Source of the DNA: Patescibacteria group bacterium
Lineage (GTDB): Bacteria; Patescibacteriota; Patescibacteriia; Patescibacteriales; UBA12465
Direction: 5' to 3'
Length of the DNA stretch: 64,000 bases
NCBI GenBank assembly: GCA_050943055.1
Contig: JBMNOL010000002.1
Span: 2,855 to 66,854 of the forward strand
The notes beneath the pieces are model-generated. The model saw nothing but the letters and a program-made list of their open reading frames with translations. It had not been told where the DNA came from and did not search any database. Positions 3,939-37,625 of this stretch are shown in pieces. A program made the translations under genes and the position numbers. How positions within the stretch are numbered: the first letter of the stretch is position 1; every line of letters begins with the position of its first letter.

Positions 3939-5237
3939 ATGTTTTTAAACTGGCAGCGCGTTTTACGCTTGATCCCGTCGTCTTATCAACCCTGGTTAAA
4001 CCATGAAGGTTTCAAAAAATATTTTAGAAATACCGGCTGGATGTTTCTCGGGCAGTTTTTTTCTTTGGTTACCTCTTTTTTTGTGGGCGCCGCCGTCGCT
4101 CGTTATCTTGGTCCGGCTAATTATGGCCTTTATAATTACGCCTTATCTTTTGTTGGACTTTTTTCTTTTATCGCCCCTTTAGGAGTAGATGCGATTTTGT
4201 ATCGGGAGTTAATTTCTCACCCCGAGAAGCGCGATGAATTGTTAGGTACTACTTTTCGCTTAAAATTAATTGGGGGCACGATTGCTTTTTTTGCGGCTTC
4301 GCTGGCAGCCTACTTTTTAGAAAGCAGCTATTTAGTTAAGCTGATTGTTTTGATTTTTTCCAGCAGTTTTATTTTCCAAGCTTTTAATGTTTCCAATACT
4401 TTTTTTAATTCTCGGGTGGAGTCGGTTAAAAATGTCAAAGTCCAAACGCTGGGAATTTTATTAGCCGCTGTTTTAAAAATTGTGGTCATTGTCACCCACC
4501 GCGGCGTTATATGGTTAGCGGTGGCCGCTTTAATTGAATCAGTGGTCATTTCTATTGGAGCTATTTATTTTTATCGCCAATCGGGACGGTCCTTATCAAC
4601 CTGGAGTTTTAGCCCGACTTTGGCGAAGAGAATTTTAAGTGTTTCCTGGTTGTTACTTTTATCATCAGCGGCCGCTTTTATTTATCAGAAAGTTGATCAG
4701 GTAATGATTGGTCGCTTTTTAGGCAACGCCGCGGTTGGCTTGTATGCTGTGGCCGCCAAACTCTCCGAGATTTGGTATTTTATTCCCGGCATTATTTGTG
4801 GCTCCTTATTTCCGGCGATTGTTAATGCGAAAAAAACCAGTTGGGCGCTCTACCAAAATCGTTTGGGCAAATTATATTGGTTGATGTTTTTTTTAGCCTT
4901 AGGGGTTACTTTGCCGCTGACTATTTTTAGTCAGCCGGTCACAATCTTTATTTTTGGCCCGGAATATGCGGCGGCAGCGCCGGTTCTAAGGATTTACGCT
5001 TGGTCCAGTATTGGTCTTTTTTTGGTTACCGCCATTAATCAAGCGCTTACCTCCGAAAATCGTCTACGGCTTATTTTCTTTCTTAACTTAATAATGATGG
5101 TGGCCAATGTCGGTTTAAATTATTTATTCATTCCTCGTTTTGGTTTAGTGGGCGCTGCTTGGGCAACGACAATTTCTTATTTACTGGGTCCTCTTTGTAT
5201 TTTTATTTATCAGCGCTGGCGGCGGGTGCGCTCCTAA
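3939..5237 (+). CDS. Oligosaccharide/polysaccharide flippase (Wzx-like, MOP superfamily)
   Basis: 432-aa polytopic membrane protein with about 12 hydrophobic segments. Its length and layout are typical of polysaccharide biosynthesis flippases, and it sits convergent to a sugar transferase. Confidence 0.7.
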   Translation: MFLNWQRVLRLIPSSYQPWLNHEGFKKYFRNTGWMFLGQFFSLVTSFFVGAAVARYLGPANYGLYNYALSFVGLFSFIAPLGVDAILYRELISHPEKRDELLGTTFRLKLIGGTIAFFAASLAAYFLESSYLVKLIVLIFSSSFIFQAFNVSNTFFNSRVESVKNVKVQTLGILLAAVLKIVVIVTHRGVIWLAVAALIESVVISIGAIYFYRQSGRSLSTWSFSPTLAKRILSVSWLLLLSSAAAFIYQKVDQVMIGRFLGNAAVGLYAVAAKLSEIWYFIPGIICGSLFPAIVNAKKTSWALYQNRLGKLYWLMFFLALGVTLPLTIFSQPVTIFIFGPEYAAAAPVLRIYAWSSIGLFLVTAINQALTSENRLRLIFFLNLIMMVANVGLNYLFIPRFGLVGAAWATTISYLLGPLCIFIYQRWRRVRS

Positions 5238-5290: not shown

Positions 5291-6610
5291 TTAACGACCG
5301 GCCCGGCCCAACATCGTGGCGATAGTTTTTAGAGCAATACTTAAATCTAAATAAATAGAACGATGCTTGAGGTAAAAAAGGTCATACTCCAACTTGGCTT
5401 GGGTGTCTTCAAGAGAAGGGGAGTGATAAACGCCGGAAACTTGATCCCAGCCGCTAATTCCCGGCTTGATTAACAAGCGAGTTTTATAGAAAGGTATTTT
5501 TTGCGCTAACTCGGCAACATATTCCGGCCGTTCGGGACGCGGGCCGATAAAGCTCATTTCCCCTCGGAAAATATTGATAATTTGCGGAATTTCATCTAAG
5601 CGACTCACTCGCAGGAAGCGACCAATTCGCGTAATCCGCTTGTCTTGGGGGCCAGTCATTGAACCGTCATTACCCTTTGTTTTCATGGTTCTAAATTTAA
5701 GCATCGTAAAGACGTGTTCATTTTTTCCCACGCGTTGTTGACGAAAAAGAACGGGACCGCGACTATCGATTTTTATCAGTAGTGCCAATAAAGGGAAAAA
5801 GGGGAGAGTAATGAGTAGCAGCAAGCCGGCCCCGACTAAGTCGGCCACTCGTTTAGCTAAATCAAAATAACGGCGACTACCCTGGTTAACATTATCAATA
5901 AACCAAGCTTGGTTAATGGAGCTTAGGGGCACGCGACCATAAACCAATTCGTAAAAATCACTGAGGTTGTAAACATTAATGTTTAAAGATAGACAGCTAA
6001 ACAGTAAGCTTATCAAGTCAGGATTATCAGCAAATTCTGGAGCGACAATCACAGTATTGATATTTCGTTCCTTAATTAGGGTCGGCAGTGCCTTGGCGTC
6101 TTTTAGATTCTTAAAAACTAAAGCCGTATTAAAGCCTTGGTGTGGTTGCTTGGCTAAACTAACTAAAAGATCACGACTCACGGAGTCGTTGCCGATAATG
6201 GCTAAATTGTTGACCGGTAAAAATGAGCGAATCACTAAACTGGCCAGTGAGCGCCAGAGGAAAAAAAGCAAGAAAAAAACGCCTAAGAAAATTATCAAAA
6301 TAGTTTTTGGCGAGACTGGTGATTGAATTAAGTAGAAATAGATAATAGAAATCAGCCCCGCTCCTAAAGTGGCCGAGACCGCGTTTTGTAGGAAGCGGCG
6401 AAAATTATAAACCAAGTTTAATCTATAGGCGCCGTTAATATAGAGAACTACTAACCACAGCAAGAATAAGGGGCGGAAGTAGGGAATATTCTCTAACCAC
6501 ATTGCTTGCCAATTGGACCCGAAGCGTAACAGCAAAGAGAAGGCAAGTGCCAAAAAAAGCACTCCCAAATCACCTAAGATTAGGCAGACTTGTTTGAAAC
6601 GTTTACTCAT
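5291..6610 (-). CDS. Polyprenyl-phosphate glycosyl-1-phosphate transferase (WbaP/bacterial sugar transferase family)
   Basis: 439 aa. The N-terminus has TM helices and the C-terminus is a sugar-transferase domain (LFRQQRVGKNEHVFTMLKFRTM, DEIPQIINIFRGEMSFIGPRPERPEY). Confidence 0.85.
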   Translation of the reverse strand: MSKRFKQVCLILGDLGVLFLALAFSLLLRFGSNWQAMWLENIPYFRPLFLLWLVVLYINGAYRLNLVYNFRRFLQNAVSATLGAGLISIIYFYLIQSPVSPKTILIIFLGVFFLLFFLWRSLASLVIRSFLPVNNLAIIGNDSVSRDLLVSLAKQPHQGFNTALVFKNLKDAKALPTLIKERNINTVIVAPEFADNPDLISLLFSCLSLNINVYNLSDFYELVYGRVPLSSINQAWFIDNVNQGSRRYFDLAKRVADLVGAGLLLLITLPFFPLLALLIKIDSRGPVLFRQQRVGKNEHVFTMLKFRTMKTKGNDGSMTGPQDKRITRIGRFLRVSRLDEIPQIINIFRGEMSFIGPRPERPEYVAELAQKIPFYKTRLLIKPGISGWDQVSGVYHSPSLEDTQAKLEYDLFYLKHRSIYLDLSIALKTIATMLGRAGR

Positions 6611-13629: not shown

Positions 13630-13679
13630 AATTGCGCCACCCGTCTTAGGCCCCCGTAGGTTCATAGCAGTTATAACAA

Positions 13680-13922
13680 GTGTTCTGTAAAATAACTAAA
13701 TCTGTGAACATCAAAAAATTTTTAAAGCCGGATAAAAACCTGGTGATTAAAATTAATGGGGTTGAATATTTAGTCGATGATCAGGCGGTAGTAACAATTG
13801 AGCGCGGCGATGAAGAGATTGATTTAATTCAGTTATACGACCAAAATCATTATTTATTTAATCGCTCAGTTATTAAAGATGCTATCAATCAAGATGGGAT
13901 AATTGGTTATTTGGATAAATAA
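13680..13922 (+). CDS. Hypothetical small protein
   Basis: 80-codon ORF with a GTG start. It is AT-rich, has no recognisable motif, and is followed by a strong terminator. Confidence 0.4.
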   Translation: MFCKITKSVNIKKFLKPDKNLVIKINGVEYLVDDQAVVTIERGDEEIDLIQLYDQNHYLFNRSVIKDAINQDGIIGYLDK

Positions 13923-13967
13923 AGGGGTAAAAAAGTTGCCGCCGCCATTCTTTTAAATTGAATTTAG

Positions 13968-13993
13968 AAAACCCGAAAAGCTTCGGGTTTTTG
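13968..13993 (+). terminator. Intrinsic terminator
   Basis: ACCCGAA (13971-13977), loop AAGC, TTCGGGT (13982-13988), then a T-run. An A-run lies upstream. Confidence 0.75.
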
Positions 13994-14019
13994 TATTATT
14001 GGTGATAATTAGTTATATT
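13991..14019 (+). promoter_or_regulatory. Putative promoter with leaderless geometry
   Basis: TTGTAT (13991-13996), a 17-nt spacer, TATATT (14014-14019), then exactly 6 nt to the ATG at 14026. Confidence 0.4.
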
Positions 14020-14025
14020 ATAAAT

Positions 14026-14190
14026 ATGAAAATATCTTATATTCACAGCAGTAAAAAAGTTAAAACGGGCGCTGACTATATTAATAGTTTAATTGTGGCC
14101 TCACTTCGTCGTCAAGGAGCGAAAGTTAAGGACTTCTACCCAAGGTTTTCTCTTAGCGATACCCCGGAGGAAATAATAAGTAAAAAATAG
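14026..14190 (+). pseudogene. Possible remnant of a GT-B glycosyltransferase N-terminus (54 codons)
   Basis: MKISYIHSSKKVKTGADYINSLIVASLRRQGAKVKDFYP follows the MKI...G(A/G)...L...L...G..V pattern of GT4 N-termini, including the two GT4 genes in this window. The ORF stops after 54 codons. Confidence 0.3.
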
Positions 14191-14271
14191 TTTTTTCCTA
14201 TTTTAGCTAATTTTTATCCTTGATTTTTCAAGGATTATGTGTTAATTTAGGCAAGTTAAGACCTTAAAATT

Positions 14272-14514
14272 ATGTTTGAAAAAAAGTTCGATCCGTTGGC
14301 GGCCGGGCATAAGGCCGCCGATAAAATTTTGGCCCGGCGTGAACAGAAAGCTTTGGAAAAAGAAGCAGACTTAGTCGCCGCCCACGAAATAAAACAAAAA
14401 GAAGTGCAGCAGGAACAGGCCCGTCGCGATTTTGAGGAACGTCAAGCCGAATTAAATGATCTCTATAAAGATGATCCGATGAGCGATATTGATCCTTCGC
14501 GCCGACTTTATTAA
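14272..14514 (+). CDS. Hypothetical small charged helical protein
   Basis: 80-aa Lys/Glu/Ala-rich ORF ending 7 nt before the ileS ATG. The opposite strand is also open here, so coding status is uncertain. Confidence 0.4.
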   Translation: MFEKKFDPLAAGHKAADKILARREQKALEKEADLVAAHEIKQKEVQQEQARRDFEERQAELNDLYKDDPMSDIDPSRRLY

Positions 14515-21630: not shown

Positions 21631-22677
21631 ATGTTGTTTGGAAAATTACGCGGCAAAATGAGCCATGATTTAGGCATTGATTTGGGGACAAAAAATACCC
21701 TTGTTTTTCTTAATGGAAAAGGGGTGGTTGTTAACGAACCTTCGGTCGTGGCCATTAATAAACGGACTAATGAAATTTTAGAAGTTGGCGAGGCGGCTAG
21801 CTTAATGGTGGGCAAAACACCGAGTCATATTGAGGCAGTTAAACCTTTAGTTGATGGAGTGATTTCTGATTTTGAAGTCACCGAAAAAATGCTTAAGTAT
21901 TTTATTTCTCGGGTTCACCAGCAGAACTTTGCTTTAGTGCCGCGACCACGAGTGGTAGTGGGTATCCCTTTGGACTTGACTGAGGTGGAGCGAAAAGCCG
22001 TTGAAGATGCCACGAAATCGGCTGGAGCGCGCAAAGTTTATTTAATTGAGGAGGCGATGGCGGCGGCAATTGGTGCCGGTTTGCCGGTAATAGATGCGAC
22101 GGCGACCATGGTGGTTGATATTGGTGGCGGCTCAACGGAAATTGCCGTTATCTCTTTAGGGGGTGTGGTGACTTGGAAATCTTTGCGTTTGGCAGGCAAT
22201 GAATTTGACCAAAACATTATTGAGTATATTCGCGAGGAGTTTAACATTTTAATTGGTGAGCAAGTGGCGGAGAACATTAAAGTGACGATTGGTTCCGCTA
22301 TCCCGCTTGATGAACCACAAGAAATTGAAGTCCGGGGACGAGATTTAATTACCGGATTGCCCCGAGCTATTATTATTAGCGATGCTCAGGTTCGGGAGGC
22401 TTTAAGCCGAACGCTTAACAAAATTATTGAGAGTATAAAAACTATTTTAGAAACGACGCCGCCAGAGCTCGTGGCGGATATTTACGAACGGGGAATTTTT
22501 CTTTCTGGGGGCGGCGCTTTGTTGCGCGGCGTGGATAGGGCAATTTCCTTAGCCTCTAAAATCCCGGTTAAGATTGTTAATGACCCTTTGACTTGCGTGG
22601 CTCGGGGGACGGGGATGCTTTTGAAAGACAAGGAACTCTTAGAAAAAGTCGTTTTGCCGAGCACCGACAGTAAATAA
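21631..22677 (+). CDS. mreB: Rod-shape-determining actin homologue MreB (copy 1)
   Basis: Actin-fold phosphate motifs GIDLGT and VVDIGGGSTE, and LSGGGALL. It is followed by mreC and mreD. Confidence 0.93.
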   Translation: MLFGKLRGKMSHDLGIDLGTKNTLVFLNGKGVVVNEPSVVAINKRTNEILEVGEAASLMVGKTPSHIEAVKPLVDGVISDFEVTEKMLKYFISRVHQQNFALVPRPRVVVGIPLDLTEVERKAVEDATKSAGARKVYLIEEAMAAAIGAGLPVIDATATMVVDIGGGSTEIAVISLGGVVTWKSLRLAGNEFDQNIIEYIREEFNILIGEQVAENIKVTIGSAIPLDEPQEIEVRGRDLITGLPRAIIISDAQVREALSRTLNKIIESIKTILETTPPELVADIYERGIFLSGGGALLRGVDRAISLASKIPVKIVNDPLTCVARGTGMLLKDKELLEKVVLPSTDSK

Positions 22678-22685
22678 TTAGGCCT

Positions 22686-23501
22686 ATGGCGCGGTCAAAA
22701 AATAAAGCTCGAATTTGGCGGTGGGCGGTGATCATTATTATTTTGATCGTCTTCCATTTTCTTGGCTGGCTGGCTCCTTTAGAGCAAGCCGCTGTTTGGG
22801 TCGCTAAACCGGTGGCTAATTTTTTTTATAACTCCAGTGCCAACCTTCGTCATTTTTATGAGCGCCGCGAGGAGTTTAATAATTTTTCTGATCGTGTTGA
22901 TATTTTAGAAGAGCAGGTTGTTAGACTTACCGTCGCGAATGCCGATTTAAAGGAATTGGAACAAGAAAATATTAAGTTGCGCGCTCAATTAGATTTCGCG
23001 GCGAGCACGGATGCCCCCAGTTTGTTGGCCAATGTTATTTCGCAAAATTTAGTTTTTGACATCAAACAGGATGATCAAGATATTGTTATTGACCGTGGCG
23101 CCAATGACGGGGTTACCGTCGGCGCCGGAGTTATTGATGAAAACGGAGTTATTATCGGCAAGGTCGCCGAAGTACGTCCGACTTTAGCGCGTGTTTGTTT
23201 AACGACTAGTCGCAATTGTCAGTTGCCGGCCACGATTCAAAATGATACGCGCACGATTGGCTTAACGGAAGGCGATAAGGGGTTGACGATTAAAATGACT
23301 TATATTCCTCAGTCAGAAACGATTGTCCCCGGCGATACCGTTATTACTTCCGGCTTGGGCGGAGAGATTCCTCGCGGCTTATTGATTGGCGAGGTTAGTC
23401 AAGTAAATAAGTTGAATAATGATATTTGGCAGAATGTTAACATTGAACCTTTATTCAATCGTAATTCTTTAACGATTGTTAATGTTCTCTTAGTGGTATG
23501 A
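22686..23501 (+). CDS. mreC: Rod-shape-determining protein MreC
   Basis: N-terminal TM segment, a coiled coil (LKELEQENIKLRAQL) and a beta-rich C-terminus. Position is downstream of mreB, and its stop overlaps the next start (ATGA). Confidence 0.85.
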   Translation: MARSKNKARIWRWAVIIIILIVFHFLGWLAPLEQAAVWVAKPVANFFYNSSANLRHFYERREEFNNFSDRVDILEEQVVRLTVANADLKELEQENIKLRAQLDFAASTDAPSLLANVISQNLVFDIKQDDQDIVIDRGANDGVTVGAGVIDENGVIIGKVAEVRPTLARVCLTTSRNCQLPATIQNDTRTIGLTEGDKGLTIKMTYIPQSETIVPGDTVITSGLGGEIPRGLLIGEVSQVNKLNNDIWQNVNIEPLFNRNSLTIVNVLLVV

Positions 23502-27457: not shown

Positions 27458-28465
27458 ATGTTTATAAAACGCATTGGCATCGATCTTGGGACAACTTATA
27501 CTTTAGTTTATCTGCCGAAAAGAGGAATTGTGATTAACGAACCGTCAGTGGTGGCAATTTCTATCGATGACAATAAAATTTTAGCGGTTGGCAATGAAGC
27601 CAAAGATATGTTGGGACGCACTCCCGACACGATTCGAGCAATTCAGCCTTTAAAGGAAGGGGTTATTGCTGACTACCGCACTACGGAGGCGATGATTCGC
27701 TATTTTATTAATAAAACTATCGGCGGGATGCGTTTTTTCCGTCCGGAGGTAATGATTTCGGTGCCGGCTGGGATTTCTTCAACCGAGCGCCGAGCAGTAA
27801 TTGAAGCCGCGACTTCCGCGGGCGCTAAGGCTACCTACATTATTAAGGAGCCGGTGGCTGCCGCGATTGGGGCTGATATTCCGATTGGTTCAGCAACGGG
27901 CCATATGGTTATTGATATTGGCGGCGGCACGGCAGAAATGGCCGTTATTTCTTTAGGTGGTGTTGTTTCCTCCACTTCAGTCCGAGTGGGGGGTAATAAG
28001 TTTGATGAGGCGATCTTGGAGTTTGTCCGTAAAAAATATAATTTAGCCATTGGCGATCGAACAGCTGAAGAAATTAAAATTAACATCGGTTCGGCATTAT
28101 ATATGGAAGACAAGCTGTATATGGAAATTCGGGGTCGAGATATTGTTACCGGCTTACCACGCAGCATCACAGTATCTAGTGATGATGTTACCGAAGCGAT
28201 TCAGAATGAGTTAGAAGCCATTGTCGCGGCGGCCAAGAAAGTTTTAAATACGACGCCACCGGAATTAGCGGCTGATATTATGGATAAAGGGATTGTGTTG
28301 ACCGGCGGTAGCGCTTTGCTGCGCAACATGGATCAGCTAATTGCGCGCACGACCGGTGTGCCCGCTTATGTCGCTGATGACGCACTTTTGTGTGTCGTTA
28401 AAGGAACTGGAATTGCCTTAGATAACCTAGACTCCTATAAACGGAGCATTTTGGCGACTAAGTAA
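27458..28465 (+). CDS. mreB: MreB-like actin homologue (copy 2)
   Basis: GIDLGT, VIDIGGGTAE and LTGGSALL. By eye it is roughly half identical to copy 1, and no mreCD follows it. Confidence 0.9.
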   Translation: MFIKRIGIDLGTTYTLVYLPKRGIVINEPSVVAISIDDNKILAVGNEAKDMLGRTPDTIRAIQPLKEGVIADYRTTEAMIRYFINKTIGGMRFFRPEVMISVPAGISSTERRAVIEAATSAGAKATYIIKEPVAAAIGADIPIGSATGHMVIDIGGGTAEMAVISLGGVVSSTSVRVGGNKFDEAILEFVRKKYNLAIGDRTAEEIKINIGSALYMEDKLYMEIRGRDIVTGLPRSITVSSDDVTEAIQNELEAIVAAAKKVLNTTPPELAADIMDKGIVLTGGSALLRNMDQLIARTTGVPAYVADDALLCVVKGTGIALDNLDSYKRSILATK

Positions 28466-31758: not shown

Positions 31759-32781
31759 ATGTCCAAACAGGTTATCTTTGATAAAAAAAATGTTTTGGTG
31801 GCTGGTGGCGCCGGTTTTATCGGCTCGCATCTTTGCGACGAACTGGTGAAGACCTGTAAAGTTATTTGTGTTGATAATTTTATTTCTGGCCAGCAAAAAA
31901 ACATTGATCACCTCCTCGCGAATCCAGATTTTATTTTTATTAATCATGATCTCGCGGAGCCTTTAAATCTAGCAGAGATTAAAATTTTAGAACGCTTCAA
32001 GATAAAATTTCAGGGTCTTCAAGAAATTTATAATTTAGCTTGTCCGCTGTCGCCGCGCAATTTTTTAGAAAATCGTTTGGAAATTTTGAAAGCTAATTCT
32101 TTGGTTGTCTATAATTTATTAGAATTAGCGGTTGCCAATAGAGCTAAGTTTATCCAATTTTCCTCTTCGGTTGTCTATGGCGGTCGGGATCTTAATAATA
32201 TTGGACGCAAGGTGCGCGAAACTGAGTTGGGTGTTATCAATCAGTTATCGCCGCGGGCGGCCTATGATGAAGGGAAGCGCTTTGCCGAAACAATGGTTGA
32301 TTCCTATCGCGAGATACATAATTTAGACACCAAAATTGTTCGCCTCTTTAGAATCTATGGTCCGCGCATGACTTTAGACGACGACCAACTAATTCCGGAT
32401 TTGGTTTATTCGGCTATTCAAAATAAACCCTTAGTAATTTTTGGTGATGAAAATTTTTCCTCCTCTTTTTGTTACGTTGATGATGCTATTGATGCTGTTA
32501 TGAAAATGGCCGCTTCTAATTTGAACGGACCAATAAATATTGGTTCCGATGTTGATGTTAATGTCACCGACTTAGCGCAGCTGATTATTAAAGAAACCGA
32601 GTCAGAATCCCCGATTGTCTATTCGGAAAGTAAACTATTTTTAACCGAGTTATTGTTGCCTGATATTTATCAAGCGCGTAATAATCTCGCTTGGATGCCG
32701 GTCGTTACTTTGGAAAATGGAATTAAAAAAACCATCATCTCTTTGCAGTCCGCGAGCCGAACGCAAGGATTTGAGGGTTAG
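31759..32781 (+). CDS. NAD-dependent sugar-nucleotide decarboxylase/epimerase (UDP-glucuronate decarboxylase-like)
   Basis: GGAGFIGSHLCDEL and the YDEGKRFAE catalytic motif characteristic of UXS-type SDR enzymes. Confidence 0.8.
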   Translation: MSKQVIFDKKNVLVAGGAGFIGSHLCDELVKTCKVICVDNFISGQQKNIDHLLANPDFIFINHDLAEPLNLAEIKILERFKIKFQGLQEIYNLACPLSPRNFLENRLEILKANSLVVYNLLELAVANRAKFIQFSSSVVYGGRDLNNIGRKVRETELGVINQLSPRAAYDEGKRFAETMVDSYREIHNLDTKIVRLFRIYGPRMTLDDDQLIPDLVYSAIQNKPLVIFGDENFSSSFCYVDDAIDAVMKMAASNLNGPINIGSDVDVNVTDLAQLIIKETESESPIVYSESKLFLTELLLPDIYQARNNLAWMPVVTLENGIKKTIISLQSASRTQGFEG

Positions 32782-32783
32782 TT

Positions 32784-33881
32784 TTAATCAACTAAATTTA
32801 AAATTTGTTCGCCGTAAGCTGGTGGTGGCGGGGTCGTCTGAGAAGGCGCCCCGTTTTTAATAAAATCATTTAGGGTTGCTATTAAGCTCTCAAGATTGTC
32901 GGGTTCAAAAAGGAGGCCGCCCCAACGTTCAATCAGTTCAGGAATACCGCCTAAGGCGGCGGCGATCACCGGCGTCTTGGTCTGGTGGGCCTCATAAATA
33001 ACCGTCGGTGAATTTTCATAACAACGCGATGGCACAATTAAGGCTAGGCTTTGGGCTAACTCCAAATTCACAGTCGCCCGGTTTTGCCGCCCTAAAAATT
33101 TAACATTGCTGGCCGCCTGGCTGTTTTCGTGTTCACCGATGATAACAAAATTATAATCCGGAAATTTTTCGGCGGCGCCTAGAAATAAATCTAAACCTTT
33201 ATGGTAACCGGCCTGACCAATGAATAAAAATTGTTTCTTTCTCTCTGGAGTTGGAGTAAAACTTTTTACCAAGGGGTTGGGGATGACGAAACAGTTATGG
33301 TTTTTAAAAAATCCTTGTTGTCGGTAAAGATCGAGAAGCCACTTTGACGGGGCGACCACACGCATATCTTGGGGGCCGCGTTCTAATAATTGGCGACCCA
33401 GTCTTTGATAAATTTTTGCCGGCTGGCGGTTAATAATTTTTTCTTGCCCCCAATAAAGTAAACCTGAGGGGTGGAGCCACTGAATGTCGTGAAGGGTTAA
33501 AATAAATTTGGCTCCTTCTTTTTTAACTAAGCCTGGCGTTAGCCCGCCTAAACCCATTAAATTGTGGGCAATCACTAAATCAGGTTTTTCTTGTTTAATA
33601 ATTTTCTTTAAGCGTTTCCTCTGAATGCCGTTAAATAAATTTCCGAACTGCCAAAATAACCGGTAAATAAAGTTTTTTTCACTCAAGTGGTAATAATTTG
33701 AAGGTAAATAAAAAACATCCGGCATTTCTTCCGCCGGGCGGCGCGCTTTTTTCGGGTAGGTGCAAACAATTTTTACCGTGTGGCCGGCGGCTCTAAATTC
33801 TTGAGCGCTTAGGTCAACAATTCGCTCGGCCCCGCCGCGCTCGTAAGGCGTAAATAAATTATTGAGTAATAAAATTTTCAT
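32784..33881 (-). CDS. Glycosyltransferase family 4
   Basis: 365 aa with GT-B architecture and the C-terminal ENSPTVIYEAHQTKTPVIA motif. Its start overlaps the upstream gene's stop (ATGA). Confidence 0.85.
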   Translation of the reverse strand: MKILLLNNLFTPYERGGAERIVDLSAQEFRAAGHTVKIVCTYPKKARRPAEEMPDVFYLPSNYYHLSEKNFIYRLFWQFGNLFNGIQRKRLKKIIKQEKPDLVIAHNLMGLGGLTPGLVKKEGAKFILTLHDIQWLHPSGLLYWGQEKIINRQPAKIYQRLGRQLLERGPQDMRVVAPSKWLLDLYRQQGFFKNHNCFVIPNPLVKSFTPTPERKKQFLFIGQAGYHKGLDLFLGAAEKFPDYNFVIIGEHENSQAASNVKFLGRQNRATVNLELAQSLALIVPSRCYENSPTVIYEAHQTKTPVIAAALGGIPELIERWGGLLFEPDNLESLIATLNDFIKNGAPSQTTPPPPAYGEQILNLVD

Positions 33882-35041
33882 GAAAACATTTTTTTTAAAA
33901 GACGCTTGGTCGTTTCTAGGGAATAGTTATCAAGAGCATAGGCTCGTGCCGCCTGGCCATAAGCGCGCCGTCGCGGTTCATTGCCGATTAAAGCCGCTAT
34001 CTTAGCCGCGAGGTCGTCACGGTCGCGAGGTTTTACTAGTAGGCCGTCAATTTCCGGACGGAAAACAGTGCGTACTCCCGGTAGGTCGGAAGCAATGACG
34101 GGGACCCCGCAGGCCATTGCTTCGGTTAAAACTAAACCGAAGGCCTCATGACTATTGATTGAAGGGAGAATAAATAAATCACTGTCTTGATAAGTACGAA
34201 TTAATTCTTCTTCCGGTAAGCGCCCCACGAATTTTAAGTGCCGACTTAAATTTAGCTCGGCGCCTTGCTTTTCGTAATCGACGCGTCGGTCACCGTCACC
34301 GACAATAGTTAATTGCCAATTCTTTAAACGGAGCTTGGTAAGTGCCGACAATAAAATGTTTAGTCCTTTAAAATAGTGAGCGCTATCTAGGCCGCCGACA
34401 AACAGTAAATTAACACGACCGCGTTTAATAAAATTATGATTAACAAAATCCACAATCTCTTTGCCCTTAGCCGTTAATTCATCATTTTCATCCGGCAGTT
34501 TGGGGCGATAAGCTTCAGTGTCTAAGCCAAAAGGGAGGGTGATAAATTTTTCCGGCCAGCGTTTTAGTAAGGGCGCGATTTGGCTGTGACTTAAATAATC
34601 AAGACTAGCGGCAGAGATTTTAGTGGCGCGAGCGAATAATTTTTTTCGGCTCAGGCGGCTAGGCCAAGATAAAAACTTAAAACGAAAATCTAAGTTTCCG
34701 GTATCCATGTGGTAATGGATAAATAATTTTTTCTTGGGGTTAACCAATAAAAATAAATAAATAATTAAATCGGCGCCGAAAAAAGGATAATGTAAAAAAA
34801 TCGCTTCATATTTTCGGAGACGCCAGAGTAGGGAAATCGTCAAGCCGCCATGACCGGCTCTAATTTTAGGATTTAAGTAAACCAAATTAGGCTCCTCATT
34901 ATTTTTGGGGCCAGATAAAGGGGTGAGGGTAAAAGTTGTTAGATCGTGGTCGGCGGCGAGTAGTTTTCCAAAGCGGGCGGCGACTTGGCCAATCCCGCCG
35001 GGGTAAGGGGGGTAAGCGCAAACCACTTGCGCAATTTTCAT
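33878..35041 (-). CDS. Glycosyltransferase family 4
   Basis: 387 aa with the EAFGLVLTEAMACGVPVIAS motif. Confidence 0.85.
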   Translation of the reverse strand: MKIAQVVCAYPPYPGGIGQVAARFGKLLAADHDLTTFTLTPLSGPKNNEEPNLVYLNPKIRAGHGGLTISLLWRLRKYEAIFLHYPFFGADLIIYLFLLVNPKKKLFIHYHMDTGNLDFRFKFLSWPSRLSRKKLFARATKISAASLDYLSHSQIAPLLKRWPEKFITLPFGLDTEAYRPKLPDENDELTAKGKEIVDFVNHNFIKRGRVNLLFVGGLDSAHYFKGLNILLSALTKLRLKNWQLTIVGDGDRRVDYEKQGAELNLSRHLKFVGRLPEEELIRTYQDSDLFILPSINSHEAFGLVLTEAMACGVPVIASDLPGVRTVFRPEIDGLLVKPRDRDDLAAKIAALIGNEPRRRAYGQAARAYALDNYSLETTKRLLKKMFS

Positions 35042-35046
35042 AAGAA

Positions 35047-35424
35047 TTATTTTGAATCAGAATCTTTAGGCGTTGTTTTGTTTACCTGAGAGCGCGCCCC
35101 ACGTAAAGCCTCACGGCGCGCTAAAACTGTTAAATCCTGTTCTAATCTAACTAAATGTAGACGCATTTTAAAGACTAAGTAGAAGAGAGTTAAAGTCGCG
35201 AGATAAAATAAGAGGTTAATGCCACTAGCGCTTAAGCCGAGGGTGGCAGTTAAACGGTCAAGCGGTTTTAAAAAAATAATTGCCAGACCAGAAAGGCCCC
35301 AAAAAATTAGCCAGAGGACGAATTCGCTACCATTGATTATTTTACGACTTTTTTGTTTGAAGAGTTGGGTCGTGAAAAAAATAATAATGATTAAAGCGAT
35401 CAATTGTTGCCAGGAAAAAAACAT
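35047..35424 (-). CDS. Small membrane protein, DUF2304-like
   Basis: 125 aa with about four TM segments and a C-terminal amphipathic helix (RLEQDLTVLARREAL). Layout and adjacency to a GT2 gene match my recollection of DUF2304. Confidence 0.55.
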   Translation of the reverse strand: MFFSWQQLIALIIIIFFTTQLFKQKSRKIINGSEFVLWLIFWGLSGLAIIFLKPLDRLTATLGLSASGINLLFYLATLTLFYLVFKMRLHLVRLEQDLTVLARREALRGARSQVNKTTPKDSDSK

Positions 35425-35430
35425 ATAATT

Positions 35431-36087
35431 TTAGTTAGAAAATTTTTGTAAGAGCAGATCTTTAATAATTCTAAAACCCCCGCCAATTTTTTGACCAAAG
35501 TGATGATAGGTAACATGAATCGGCACTTCTTTTAGACGGCAGCCGGTTTTAACGGTTTTAAAAAGAATTTCGGTGCAATGTGCCATTCCTCGGTTAGTAA
35601 TTGTTATCTGTTCCCAAACCTCTCTTTTAAGGGCGCGAAAACCGCTCTGGGGATCCGTTGTCCGTACTCCGAGCCAGCGGTTCAGTTGGCGGGCCAGTGG
35701 CATAATTAAATAACGTTTTAGGGGTGGAAAATTAGCGTGTCCTAAAAAACGAGAACCAAAAACGGCGTCCGCTTCATCATTTAACAGCGGCGCTAAAACT
35801 ACCGGTATTTCTTCACTCTTAAATTGATCATCGGCGTCAAAATGAACAATGATGTCGGCGCCATTTTTTAGGGCGTATTCGTTGCCGGTTTGTAGAGCCG
35901 CTCCTTGACCACGGTTAATTGGATGGCGGATGACCGTCACTGGATAATTTAGAGAAATGGCGCTGGTTTGGTCGCGTGAGCAGTCGTCAACCACAACTAC
36001 CTCGTCAACTAAGGGGTAGACTTTTTCTAAAACGGCCGCGATATTTTTCGCCTCGTTATAGGCGGGGATGATACAAGCAATTTTCAT
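35431..36087 (-). CDS. Glycosyltransferase family 2 (polyprenyl-phosphate sugar synthase-like)
   Basis: CIIPAYNE, VVVVDDCSRD and FDADDQ (DxD) motifs. At 218 aa it is a soluble GT-A domain only. Confidence 0.85.
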   Translation of the reverse strand: MKIACIIPAYNEAKNIAAVLEKVYPLVDEVVVVDDCSRDQTSAISLNYPVTVIRHPINRGQGAALQTGNEYALKNGADIIVHFDADDQFKSEEIPVVLAPLLNDEADAVFGSRFLGHANFPPLKRYLIMPLARQLNRWLGVRTTDPQSGFRALKREVWEQITITNRGMAHCTEILFKTVKTGCRLKEVPIHVTYHHFGQKIGGGFRIIKDLLLQKFSN

Positions 36088-37124
36088 AGTTCAGTTTCAG
36101 GAGCGATCAAAGCATTGGCCGCCTTAATAATTAAATCAGTACTTAAAGCGGCGCTCCATTTTGTCTTTCCCCCGCTTGATTCTTCAAGGGCAAAAACGGC
36201 AGTTCGGCCGCTAATCGCGGAGTGCTGGCAATAGGAGCAGCCGCGACTGTGAAAAAATTTATTGGGCCGATAACTTTTTTCCGGTGGCCAATAACGATCT
36301 AGTAATCCTTGGTAGTGCTGGGCCGGACGAGCCACTAAACAATGAGGGCAATTTTTATCTTTAAGTTCTTGATAAATTATCATTAAGGCTAAATCAGCGG
36401 GAGCTGTCTTTTTTAATTGCGTGGCGGTTTGAGCGGGCTGATTAGAGTGGCTAGCGGCTAAGACTAAACGCCCTTCGGCCGCGGCTGTGATCGCCGCTGC
36501 CAATAACTCCGTGTCCGCATCGTCGATTGCCAGCCAGTCGTAATCTTGTTTCTTAATTTTTTCTAAACTTTGTTTCCGCTTGTTTTGCTCGCGAATAATA
36601 TTCACTCGATCAATTTTTGTTTCCGGATATTTTTCTAAAATCGCGCCGGCACTTTTATCGTTAATCAGTTCACGGACGAGCGCTTGTAAGGTAGTTGTCT
36701 TGCCTTGATGATGATCGGCGAGAATGACGACTAAGCCTCGGCGACGCTTCAGGAATTCTTTAATCTTTATCCGAGACTCTCTTACCAAGCCGAGCCGACT
36801 TAAACGAGTAGGGCCAGCCGGATCGTTAATAAATTGGAGAATAATTTTTTCGCCTCCTGCCTCGGGAATAATTGACAGGCGCATGGCTCCAAAATCATCT
36901 TTTAAATAGGCATTGCTAACTAAATCGTCGGGTGCCAGATCGAGCAGGCGCCGGTAAGCTGTGCCTAAATCATTAGCAAAATTAGGTTCAATCACTAAGC
37001 GATAAGGGCGCTGATTATTTTCGCCGCGCAAAACTTGGCGGCCACCCTCGGGTGCAATCGCGACCGCCGTTAATTGGTGCTGGCGCGCGTAACGGCTAAT
37101 TTTTTTTAAGCTCTTATTAGTCAT
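36084..37124 (-). CDS. Divergent, shortened GspE/PilB-family secretion-ATPase-like protein
   Basis: 346 aa. It has an N2-like segment (RLSIIPEAGGEKIILQFI), Walker A as ADHHQGKTTTL, a His-box-like GRLVLAASHSN and a tetracysteine CPHC...CSYC. The Asp-box and Walker B positions are altered to EKYPE and LAIDDAD. Confidence 0.65.
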   Translation of the reverse strand: MTNKSLKKISRYARQHQLTAVAIAPEGGRQVLRGENNQRPYRLVIEPNFANDLGTAYRRLLDLAPDDLVSNAYLKDDFGAMRLSIIPEAGGEKIILQFINDPAGPTRLSRLGLVRESRIKIKEFLKRRRGLVVILADHHQGKTTTLQALVRELINDKSAGAILEKYPETKIDRVNIIREQNKRKQSLEKIKKQDYDWLAIDDADTELLAAAITAAAEGRLVLAASHSNQPAQTATQLKKTAPADLALMIIYQELKDKNCPHCLVARPAQHYQGLLDRYWPPEKSYRPNKFFHSRGCSYCQHSAISGRTAVFALEESSGGKTKWSAALSTDLIIKAANALIAPETEL

Positions 37125-37211
37125 GAGCTTATTATACCATTATTTATCTTATTATTAAAATATGCTAAACTGGTAAAGTAAATTGTATTTACCCTAATTT
37201 TAGCTAGTATT

Positions 37212-37625
37212 ATGTCGTACTCGCAATTTTATGGTCGACTGCAAAATTGGCGTCTGCAGACGACTGGAACGATCAAGGATTTGTTTGGTTTGACTGCTAA
37301 TCGCTGGTATTTATTGGCGATTTTAGTCATTCAAGCAGTTTCCTGGTGGCTAGCCTCTTACATATATCAAGAAATTGCTGGCAGTCTGCTGATTTTGCAC
37401 TATAATATTGACTTCGGAATTGACCAAATTGGCGCTCCTAACCTAATTTTTAATTTTCCTCTTTTTGGAGCTCTTTTGCTTTTATTAACCATAATTTTCT
37501 TGGTAATTTTGGGAAGTGGCCGCCATTTTAAAATTCAGAGTCATTTTTTAATGGGGGCAGCGACAGTTAGTAACTTAGGAATCTTAGTGGTGCTTATTTT
37601 AATATATTTAATGAACTTCCGTTAA
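37212..37625 (+). CDS. Hypothetical membrane protein
   Basis: 137 aa with 3 hydrophobic segments. It ends 6 nt upstream of mraY. Confidence 0.55.
   Translation: MSYSQFYGRLQNWRLQTTGTIKDLFGLTANRWYLLAILVIQAVSWWLASYIYQEIAGSLLILHYNIDFGIDQIGAPNLIFNFPLFGALLLLLTIIFLVILGSGRHFKIQSHFLMGAATVSNLGILVVLILIYLMNFR

Follow-up and report, generated by a model that had tools for sequence, protein, structure and literature searches.

A degenerate PilB-like gene at the head of a conserved glycosyltransferase operon in Patescibacteria

The stretch of DNA analysed here, referred to as the window, comprises 64,000 nucleotides (nt) of contig JBMNOL010000002.1 from a Patescibacteria group bacterium (assembly GCA_050943055.1), and all positions are counted from its first letter. 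It holds a five-gene operon on the minus strand (32784-37124), in which a gene encoding a relative of the PilB/GspE ATPases precedes those of a family 2 glycosyltransferase (GT2), a small DUF2304 membrane protein and two family 4 glycosyltransferases (GT4a and GT4b). In pili and secretion systems, ATPases of the PilB/GspE type are regarded as obligate motors. The residues retained and lost by the product of the first gene suggest that it is not a normal working secretion motor, and that it is probably a regulator or a scaffold.

The operon, its promoter and its glycosyltransferase genes

All five open reading frames (ORFs) are present in the ORF list on the minus strand, at the coordinates first assigned to them. 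The first gene (36084-37124) encodes a PilB/GspE-derived ATPase-like protein of 346 residues, composed of an N2 domain and a C-terminal ATPase domain with a Cys4 motif, as assigned by Pfam, NCBIfam, AlphaFold2 and Foldseek. It is followed by the gene of a soluble GT-A glycosyltransferase of the polyprenyl-phosphate sugar synthase type, GacI/PpgS-like (GT2, 35431-36087, 218 residues), by that of a GacJ/Rv3632-like DUF2304 protein (35047-35424, 125 residues), and by those of two GT-B glycosyltransferases, GT4a (33878-35041, 387 residues) and GT4b (32784-33881, 365 residues). The stop codon of the PilB-like gene and the start codon of GT2 share an ATGA at 36084-36087 ('GAACTATGAAAA'), and a second ATGA at 33878-33881 joins the stop of GT4a to the start of GT4b ('TTTTCATGAAAA'). 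The remaining two junctions are gaps of 6 nt (GT2/DUF2304) and 5 nt (DUF2304/GT4a). Inspection of the junction sequences revealed no obvious Shine-Dalgarno sequence upstream of the five genes. At its far end the operon converges on the gene of an NAD-dependent sugar-nucleotide epimerase/dehydratase (SDR, 31759-32781, plus strand; Pfam Epimerase, 3.6e-38), the stop codon of which, at 32781, is 2 nt away from the GT4b end at 32784. No convincing terminator was found at this boundary, and the region contains 8 terminator-like sites compared with 7.6 expected from shuffled sequences. The ORF list, the sequence and Pfam therefore bear out the first-pass annotation in its gene order, both overlaps, the 5-6 nt gaps, the 2-nt spacing without a terminator and the family assignments of all five genes; only the four transmembrane segments it had given to the small protein have to be corrected, as the hydropathy profile of the DUF2304 protein displays three hydrophobic segments.

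A promoter-like site was located at 37131-37158 on the minus strand, consisting of TTAATA, a 16-nt spacer and an extended -10 element, TGGTATAAT, which stops 6 nt short of the ATG of the PilB-like gene. In the promoter scan of the region this site scored highest, with 10 of 12 matches plus the TG extension. The motif TGnTATAAT abutting the first ATG recurs at the equivalent position in related loci (L001-L027), with TATAAT beginning at -12 from the ATG of the PilB-like gene in 12 out of 17 loci, including the distant L019, L022 and L025. Since the -10 element ends only 6 nt before the ATG, the position of the promoter suggests that the first cistron is leaderless or near-leaderless, and the conservation of the promoter suggests that the PilB-like gene is the true head of the transcription unit. 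With their tight or overlapping junctions and this conserved promoter, the five genes look like a single transcription unit, in agreement with the initial proposal.

GT2 matches Pfam Glycos_transf_2 (PF00535) with an E-value of 1.9e-28 and has no predicted hydrophobic segment. Its top NCBIfam match is the polyprenyl-phospho-GalNAc synthase PpgS at 146.7 bits, which is below the equivalog cut-off of 370, so that the sugar is not fixed by this match. The nearest solved relatives are dolichol-P-mannose synthase (5mlz) and ArnC, with AglJ also among the best matches, and both the DxD motif (D84, D86) and a VVDD motif are invariant in 12 orthologues. The DUF2304 protein matches PF10066 (1.3e-14) at 54.7 bits against a cut-off of 25.5. 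Similar to this gene pair, GacI/GacJ of Streptococcus pyogenes and PpgS/Rv3632 of Mycobacterium tuberculosis each consist of a soluble GT2 of about 220 residues followed by a three-helix DUF2304 protein of about 110-125 residues. Three transmembrane helices have been reported for GacJ, which forms a complex with the synthase and strongly stimulates it (10.1101/180810). By sequence, GT2 and the DUF2304 protein resemble a polyprenyl-phosphate sugar synthase pair of the GacI/GacJ or PpgS/Rv3632 type. The system of the window differs from GacI/GacJ in that its GT2 scores below the PpgS equivalog level and no GT-C acceptor transferase was found adjoining the operon; GacI/GacJ as described by Rush et al., in turn, includes no PilB-like component (10.1101/180810).

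The two remaining genes encode proteins with generic GT4 features. GT4a matches Glycos_transf_1 (1.7e-40), and its NCBIfam matches to EpsE, BshA and MshA are all sub-threshold. GT4b matches Glycos_transf_1 (2.3e-22) and Glyco_transf_4 (8.6e-17). Both proteins have sub-threshold NCBIfam matches to many retaining GT-B enzymes, too weak to name their products. A 'GT4-conflict' match of GT4a was considered as a sign of a defence system and rejected, because it reflects generic GT4 similarity and the operon lies inside conserved housekeeping synteny.

Fold, motifs and descent of the PilB-like protein

The PilB-like protein matches Pfam T2SSE (PF00437) at 73.1 bits (cut-off 24.9; 2e-20), over residues 65-313 only. 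The NCBIfam models of GspE (TIGR02533 and NF007755) and PilB (TIGR02538) match at 69-72 bits, below their equivalog cut-offs of 617-676; for the GspE/PilB models taken together, the cut-offs lie at 617-850. An AlphaFold2 model based on 16 orthologues (mean predicted local distance difference test, pLDDT, 76.6) was predicted to retain the N2 domain and the fold of the C-terminal ATPase domain (CTD). The best Foldseek matches of the model were PilF (5oiu), PilB (5tsg) and GspE (4pht/1p9r), with E-values from 3e-21 to 1e-18 over about 380 columns, and the family profile matches Vibrio EpsE with an E-value of 3e-31. The protein starts precisely where the N2 domain starts in canonical PilB, and no match to the N1/MshEN domain (PF05157) was found in it.

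Alignment with EpsE revealed drastic differences in the catalytic motifs. The Walker A motif, GPTGSGKS in EpsE, reads ADHHQGKT in the window protein, giving an acidic loop; its first glycine position varies within the window clade (A/G/S/T), with the GKT invariant there. The Asp box changes from EDPIE to EKYPE. In Walker B, VGEIRD is replaced by IDDAD (in the context LAIDDAD), such that Gly-Glu becomes Asp-Asp. The His box, GHLV...LHTN in EpsE, is reduced to GRLV followed by a non-conserved position, and His226 of the window protein is not conserved within its own clade. The residues invariant among the 16-17 sequences of the window clade are the GKT, Glu164 and Glu168 of the Asp box and Asp201/Asp202 at Walker B, together with the Cys4 motif (Cys259, Cys262, Cys296 and Cys299).

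The same losses extend through the family. An exhaustive profile search yielded about 45 cluster representatives of 280-400 residues that share the N-terminus of the family, falling into about eight clusters; a further word-indexed search with a broad alignment returned mostly canonical PilBs and one extra member, P0270. Motif retention was determined for 52 family members against 91 canonical PilB/GspE sequences. The canonical set has 80 columns with a conservation of 90% or more, and only 10 of these are held in at least 80% of the family. The Walker B Gly and Glu are retained in 2% and 10% of the members, the Arg of GEIRD in 2%, the two histidines of the His box in 4% and 2%, and the arginines of the N2 domain in 0-29%. 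The Walker A Lys is retained in 79% of the family and in 100% of the window clade, and several sister clades replace GK[ST] by GRT, GLS, GAS, GVS or GSS. Because these sister clades have the same gene order, a conserved function of the short family cannot require the Walker A Lys, and to judge from the motifs it cannot depend on canonical ATP hydrolysis. The window protein itself may yet bind nucleotide, which is plausible from its invariant GKT and Asp-box glutamates. It thus has in common with PilB/GspE (PF00437; 1p9r, 4pht, 5tsg and 5oiu) the N2-CTD fold, the Cys4 zinc motif and a GKT remnant of the P-loop. Unlike these motors, it lacks N1/MshEN, fails to maintain 70 of the 80 canonical conserved columns, and is encoded as the first cistron of a glycosyltransferase operon with no pilus or secretion partners nearby.

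These features bear on an initial suggestion that the ATPase homologue energises export or assembly of a glycoconjugate. The protein would then be an active, divergent hexameric ATPase, driving the flipping or extraction of a polyprenyl-phosphate sugar via the DUF2304 protein, or exporting the product of the GT4 enzymes. The residues invariant in the window clade, the Cys4 motif among them, and the retained PilB-type N2 and CTD fold are consistent with such a role, as are the translational coupling to GT2 and the presence of intact PilBs at the same operon position in six loci (see below). However, the suggestion is weakened by the loss of N1, of the Walker B Gly-Glu, of the GEIRD Arg, of both His-box histidines and of most conserved arginines, and by the sister clades that keep the gene order without the Walker A Lys. 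In addition, no PilC/GspF-type platform lies nearby, the glycosyltransferase module is complete without a PilB-family gene in 24 of 74 loci, and the GacI/GacJ system as described by Rush et al. includes no such ATPase (10.1101/180810). We therefore consider an active motor quite unlikely.

The six loci with intact PilBs point to the descent of the short family. Between GT2 and the gene of a 137-residue membrane protein, TM137, they contain a full-length PilB of 578-605 residues with MshEN and T2SSE domains (448 bits) and all motifs present (L065, L074, L076, L079, L101 and L105; for example L105:3229-4965). No other pilus genes were found near the long PilB in the six loci. Three of them (L074, L076 and L101) carry an extra ORF of 260-368 residues beside it, which has no family match. 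In BLASTP searches with 13 diverse members of the short family, the long forms of the locus outscored all 157 top-ranked canonical PilBs for 9 of them. In neighbour-joining trees the short family was monophyletic in 60 of 60 bootstraps, and the long locus forms were its sister group in 44 of 60. With a canonical set of 211 PilBs the same sister relation was obtained, the sister group now also taking in P0161 and P0212, two long forms with partly eroded motifs; a group with a Wolfebacteria PilB sits two nodes further out. These trees are distance-based, with few Patescibacteria PilBs from ordinary pilus loci among the controls. Since its closest relatives are full-length, intact PilBs that occupy this position in other lineages, the short family probably degenerated in place from a Patescibacteria PilB paralogue.

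Two further types of long PilB were noted. P0161 (543 residues) and P0212 (572 residues) have partly eroded motifs, with GPAASGKTT, GEIPD and no His box, and are likely evolutionary intermediates. P0128-P0134 and similar sequences are tandem double PilB ATPase units of about 1000 residues, both halves of which have an intact Walker A motif. Most of the six tandem sequences checked have GEIRD and the His box in both halves, and they outscore ordinary PilBs on the family profile.

The PilB-like gene is under strong purifying selection. Compared with a strain of 98% protein identity, where dS, the rate of synonymous substitution, is 0.14 and unsaturated, its ratio of nonsynonymous to synonymous substitution (dN/dS) is 0.068, and 16 neighbouring genes range from 0.02 to 0.16 in the same comparison. 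Comparisons at 82% identity or less were synonymously saturated and left out of the dN/dS analysis. At deeper divergence the gene is among the fastest-evolving of the block, with 35-40% identity where GT2 has 65%, MraY 80% and SDR 73%. The first-pass annotation had raised the possibility of a pseudogene decaying in relatives. Decay is ruled out by the dN/dS value, which lies inside the range of the housekeeping neighbours, and the one apparent truncation, in relative L016, turned out to be a run of masked Ns, the start codon and N-terminus being intact.

Neighbourhood of the operon in related loci

The conservation of the linkage was surveyed from both sides. On the ATPase side, loci were collected from nine sequence clusters of the short family, ranging from 98% to about 24% identity to the window protein. 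GT2 lies directly downstream of the PilB-like gene in every one of these loci, wherever the contig reaches, and no locus with the short form but without GT2 downstream was found within that reach. The junction is a 4-nt overlap in most loci. Nearly every related locus with contig beyond GT2 has the DUF2304 gene downstream of it. Insertions of 1-3 genes occur between GT2 and DUF2304 (L019 and L023), and others after GT4b (L004-L009 and L021); none was seen between the short PilB-like gene and GT2 among the loci examined. The conserved order comprises MurC, MurG, FtsW, MraY and TM137 on one strand and the PilB-like gene, GT2, DUF2304, GT4 and GT4 on the opposite strand, and beyond GT4b the genes of SDR, an S8 peptidase, a GT4 and MreB converge on the operon in related loci. 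The relatives carry the labels Patescibacteria group, Candidatus Falkowbacteria and Candidatus Parcubacteria.

As a control from the GT2 side, metagenomes were scanned with an alignment of GT2 orthologues, and the best 80 of 420 matches (51-94% GT2 identity) were annotated against the window proteins and the hidden Markov model of the family. Six of these had too little upstream sequence, leaving 74 informative loci, for which the counts are descriptive. A PilB-family gene lies directly upstream of GT2 in 50 of the 74 (68%), being the short PilB-like gene in 44 and a full-length PilB of 578-605 residues in 6. The GT2-DUF2304-GT4-GT4 module occurs without a PilB-family gene in the other 24: in 8 of these GT2 is preceded by TM137 on the opposite strand, at a distance of 45-101 nt in the six that were measured, and in 16 by SDR or the S8 peptidase on the same strand, with neither an ATPase gene nor adjacent genes of the cell-wall (dcw) cluster. 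The PilB-family gene is therefore confined to glycosyltransferase blocks that stand back-to-back with TM137-MraY (50 of 58), and is found in 0 of 16 collinear ones. The linkage to GT2, DUF2304 and GT4 is not peculiar to the window genome, as the first-pass annotation had allowed it might be; it recurs in nine clusters and in these 50 loci, across a deep clade of the ultra-small Patescibacteria.

In the collinear loci the order MreB-GT4-S8 peptidase-SDR-GT2-DUF2304-GT4-GT4 runs along one strand (L064, L082, L084, L089, L091-L093, L096-L100, L104, L106 and L107). This arrangement in relatives suggests that the one in the window arose by inversion of the glycosyltransferase block beside the dcw cluster. 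The adjacency of the PilB-like gene and GT2 might be no more than inherited gene order, with the degenerate PilB regulating or inhibiting a canonical type IV pilus machine, or acting together with TM137, MraY and FtsW. In support of this explanation, synteny across the clade extends over the whole block from MreB to AlaRS, the PilB-family gene is restricted to loci in which the glycosyltransferase block abuts TM137-MraY, the glycosyltransferase module is independent of it in 24 loci, and it evolves far faster than GT2 or MraY. However, the PilB-like gene has its strand and promoter in common with GT2, and many lineages with rearrangements elsewhere preserve the 4-nt overlap. The lack of insertions between the short form and GT2, in spite of insertions elsewhere in the operon, and the lack of any locus with the short form but no GT2 downstream also speak against it. 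We regard inherited gene order as the main rival explanation, although its probability is on the low side; the active-motor role discussed above and a role in pilin glycosylation are less likely.

In the latter case, the operon would be a module for the glycosylation of a pilin or surface protein, in which the PilB relative ties the supply of lipid-linked sugar to type IV pilus assembly. Type IV pili have been reported to be well conserved in Patescibacteria (10.1101/2024.11.25.624915), and modification of pilins of the TfpW type is known: in Pseudomonas aeruginosa, group IV pilins are arabinosylated by the glycosyltransferase TfpW (10.1101/2020.04.19.049825). That system likewise joins type IV pilus biology to glycosylation by a dedicated membrane glycosyltransferase, but the link is made via the pilin substrate and not via an ATPase homologue. 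In favour of such a module, six loci have an intact PilB as the first gene of this operon, and a prepilin-like protein is encoded in the neighbouring dcw cluster of one relative (L022). The latter is a 607-residue N_methyl BNR protein located between MurG and MurC (L022:2363-4186). The window, by contrast, has a single T2SSE-like ORF, and no pilin, PilC, PilM, prepilin peptidase or GT-C transferase gene was detected among its scanned genes, which cover the neighbourhood from 27.4 to 46.6 kb. Nor did about 100 related loci, covered with flanks of 5-10 kb, reveal PilC/GspF, PilM/GspL or pilins. The genes that constantly accompany the operon are those for peptidoglycan and cell shape, and the collinear form of the module exists without any pilus gene. 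A function in pilin glycosylation thus appears very improbable.

The plus-strand genes flanking the operon include those of cell-wall synthesis and cell shape. Starting from the operon head, the order is TM137 (37212-37625, divergent to the operon), MraY, FtsW, MurG, MurC, HisRS, MurB and AlaRS; toward the operon end it is MreB, GT4, an S8 peptidase with FG-GAP repeats, and SDR. TM137 has three hydrophobic segments and no Pfam or NCBIfam match, and wherever the contig of a related locus extends far enough, it lies beside the PilB-like gene, on the opposite strand. With 27-93% identity, it is the constant first gene of the MraY-FtsW-MurG-MurC cluster in the Patescibacteria relatives, and may be an unnamed component of cell division or the cell wall. 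TM137 was also considered as a PilC-like platform and rejected, as it has no T2SSF or other family match and remains next to MraY in loci that lack the PilB-like gene. In L004-L009 the last GT4 gene is directly followed by genes of a sortase, an Ice_binding/SpaA-like protein and a helix-turn-helix (HTH) regulator (e.g. L004:12317-15131).

The window as a whole is almost entirely coded on the plus strand, the operon being one of just two minus-strand islands. The sole other minus-strand gene encodes a Bac_transf priming phosphoglycosyltransferase (5291-6610) and lies next to that of a Wzx-type polysaccharide flippase (3939-5237, plus strand), about 28 kb from the operon. Encoded 27-30 kb away, these two proteins may cooperate with the GT4 enzymes in a pathway for a lipid-linked glycan. 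Two MreB paralogues are present, one at 21631-23501 together with MreC, and one at 27458-28465 that heads the GT4, S8 peptidase/FG-GAP and SDR genes. An 860-nt stretch between the genes of SecA and a class I tRNA synthetase (13630-14488) contains no ORF of at least 100 residues. Neither tRNA genes nor Rfam families were detected across the window (1-64000).

Proposed role of the PilB-like protein and its meaning

Based on the residues lost, the selection on the gene and its constant position, we favour, at about even probability, the explanation that the first gene encodes a PilB-derived pseudo-ATPase serving as an accessory, either regulator or scaffold, to the GT2/DUF2304 synthase or to the envelope-glycan pathway as a whole. 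The operon of this Patescibacteria (Parcubacteria-group) genome would be transcribed from the extended -10 promoter abutting the first start codon. GT2 as the catalytic subunit and the DUF2304 protein as its membrane partner would transfer a sugar to polyprenyl phosphate on the cytoplasmic side of the membrane, and the resulting polyprenyl-phosphate sugar would be the lipid-linked donor with which an envelope polymer is decorated on the outer side. In the cytoplasm, GT4a and GT4b would use nucleotide sugars to assemble or elongate a glycolipid or a lipid-linked glycan. The first gene would descend from a full-length, intact PilB that lost MshEN/N1 and most catalytic residues and became translationally coupled to GT2, and its product, a pseudo-ATPase still binding nucleotide, would regulate or scaffold the synthase or the pathway. 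In this proposal the physical or regulatory coupling to GT2/DUF2304, the nature of the glycan, and the binding of nucleotide by a protein inactive as a motor are inferred. A narrower form of the explanation, that the family has been co-opted as a dedicated subunit of a GacI/GacJ-type synthase, for example as a ring scaffold or nucleotide sensor gating the synthesis or translocation of the lipid-linked sugar, is put forward only tentatively, and we hold it to be rather doubtful.

The nearest precedent is PilB of Myxococcus xanthus, an ATPase-deficient form of which still regulates exopolysaccharide production; the nucleotide-free state of that protein is thought to be the signalling state (PMC5544727). 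There too, polysaccharide production responds to a PilB-family protein independently of ATP hydrolysis and pilus assembly. However, the Myxococcus protein is an intact pilus motor acting via the Dif pathway and is not encoded in a glycosyltransferase operon, whereas the window protein is a dedicated, truncated and degenerate paralogue, translationally coupled to GT2.

Several observations weigh against the accessory role that we favour. The glycosyltransferase module dispenses with the PilB-family gene in a third of the informative loci (24/74), so that any role must be accessory, which counts against a core energy source. The gene is as tightly tied to the cell-wall (dcw) side as to the glycosyltransferase side, and since synteny across the clade covers the entire region of about 17 kb, its adjacency to GT2 could partly reflect stasis of gene order. 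In addition, the GKT, Asp-box Glu and Asp-Asp that are invariant in the window clade would still be compatible with slow ATP hydrolysis.

Our literature searches returned no description of the PilB-like/GT2/DUF2304 combination or of a PilB-type pseudo-ATPase family. The component families are known; their combination is new, as is the graded loss of motor features. The graded series, which runs from intact long forms, by way of eroded long forms and of short forms that keep GKT, to short forms that lack the lysine, provides a natural experiment on the importance of the individual residues, with the genomic context known for all stages save the eroded long forms P0161 and P0212. For genome annotation, the automatic label 'type II secretory ATPase / PilB-like' inflates the counts of pilus motors in Patescibacteria genomes. 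If the favoured explanation is true, a large and strongly selected family shorn of its catalytic residues would be a clear case of exaptation from motor to pseudoenzyme. It would also add a hitherto unknown component to the otherwise well-defined GacI/GacJ and PpgS/Rv3632 pathway. Should the protein be a dedicated subunit of the synthase, it would represent a class of glycosyltransferase regulator not described before and one of the rare secretion motors documented to have become a pseudoenzyme, and decoration of the envelope with glycan would be coupled in these bacteria to cell-wall growth or to the status of the pilus.

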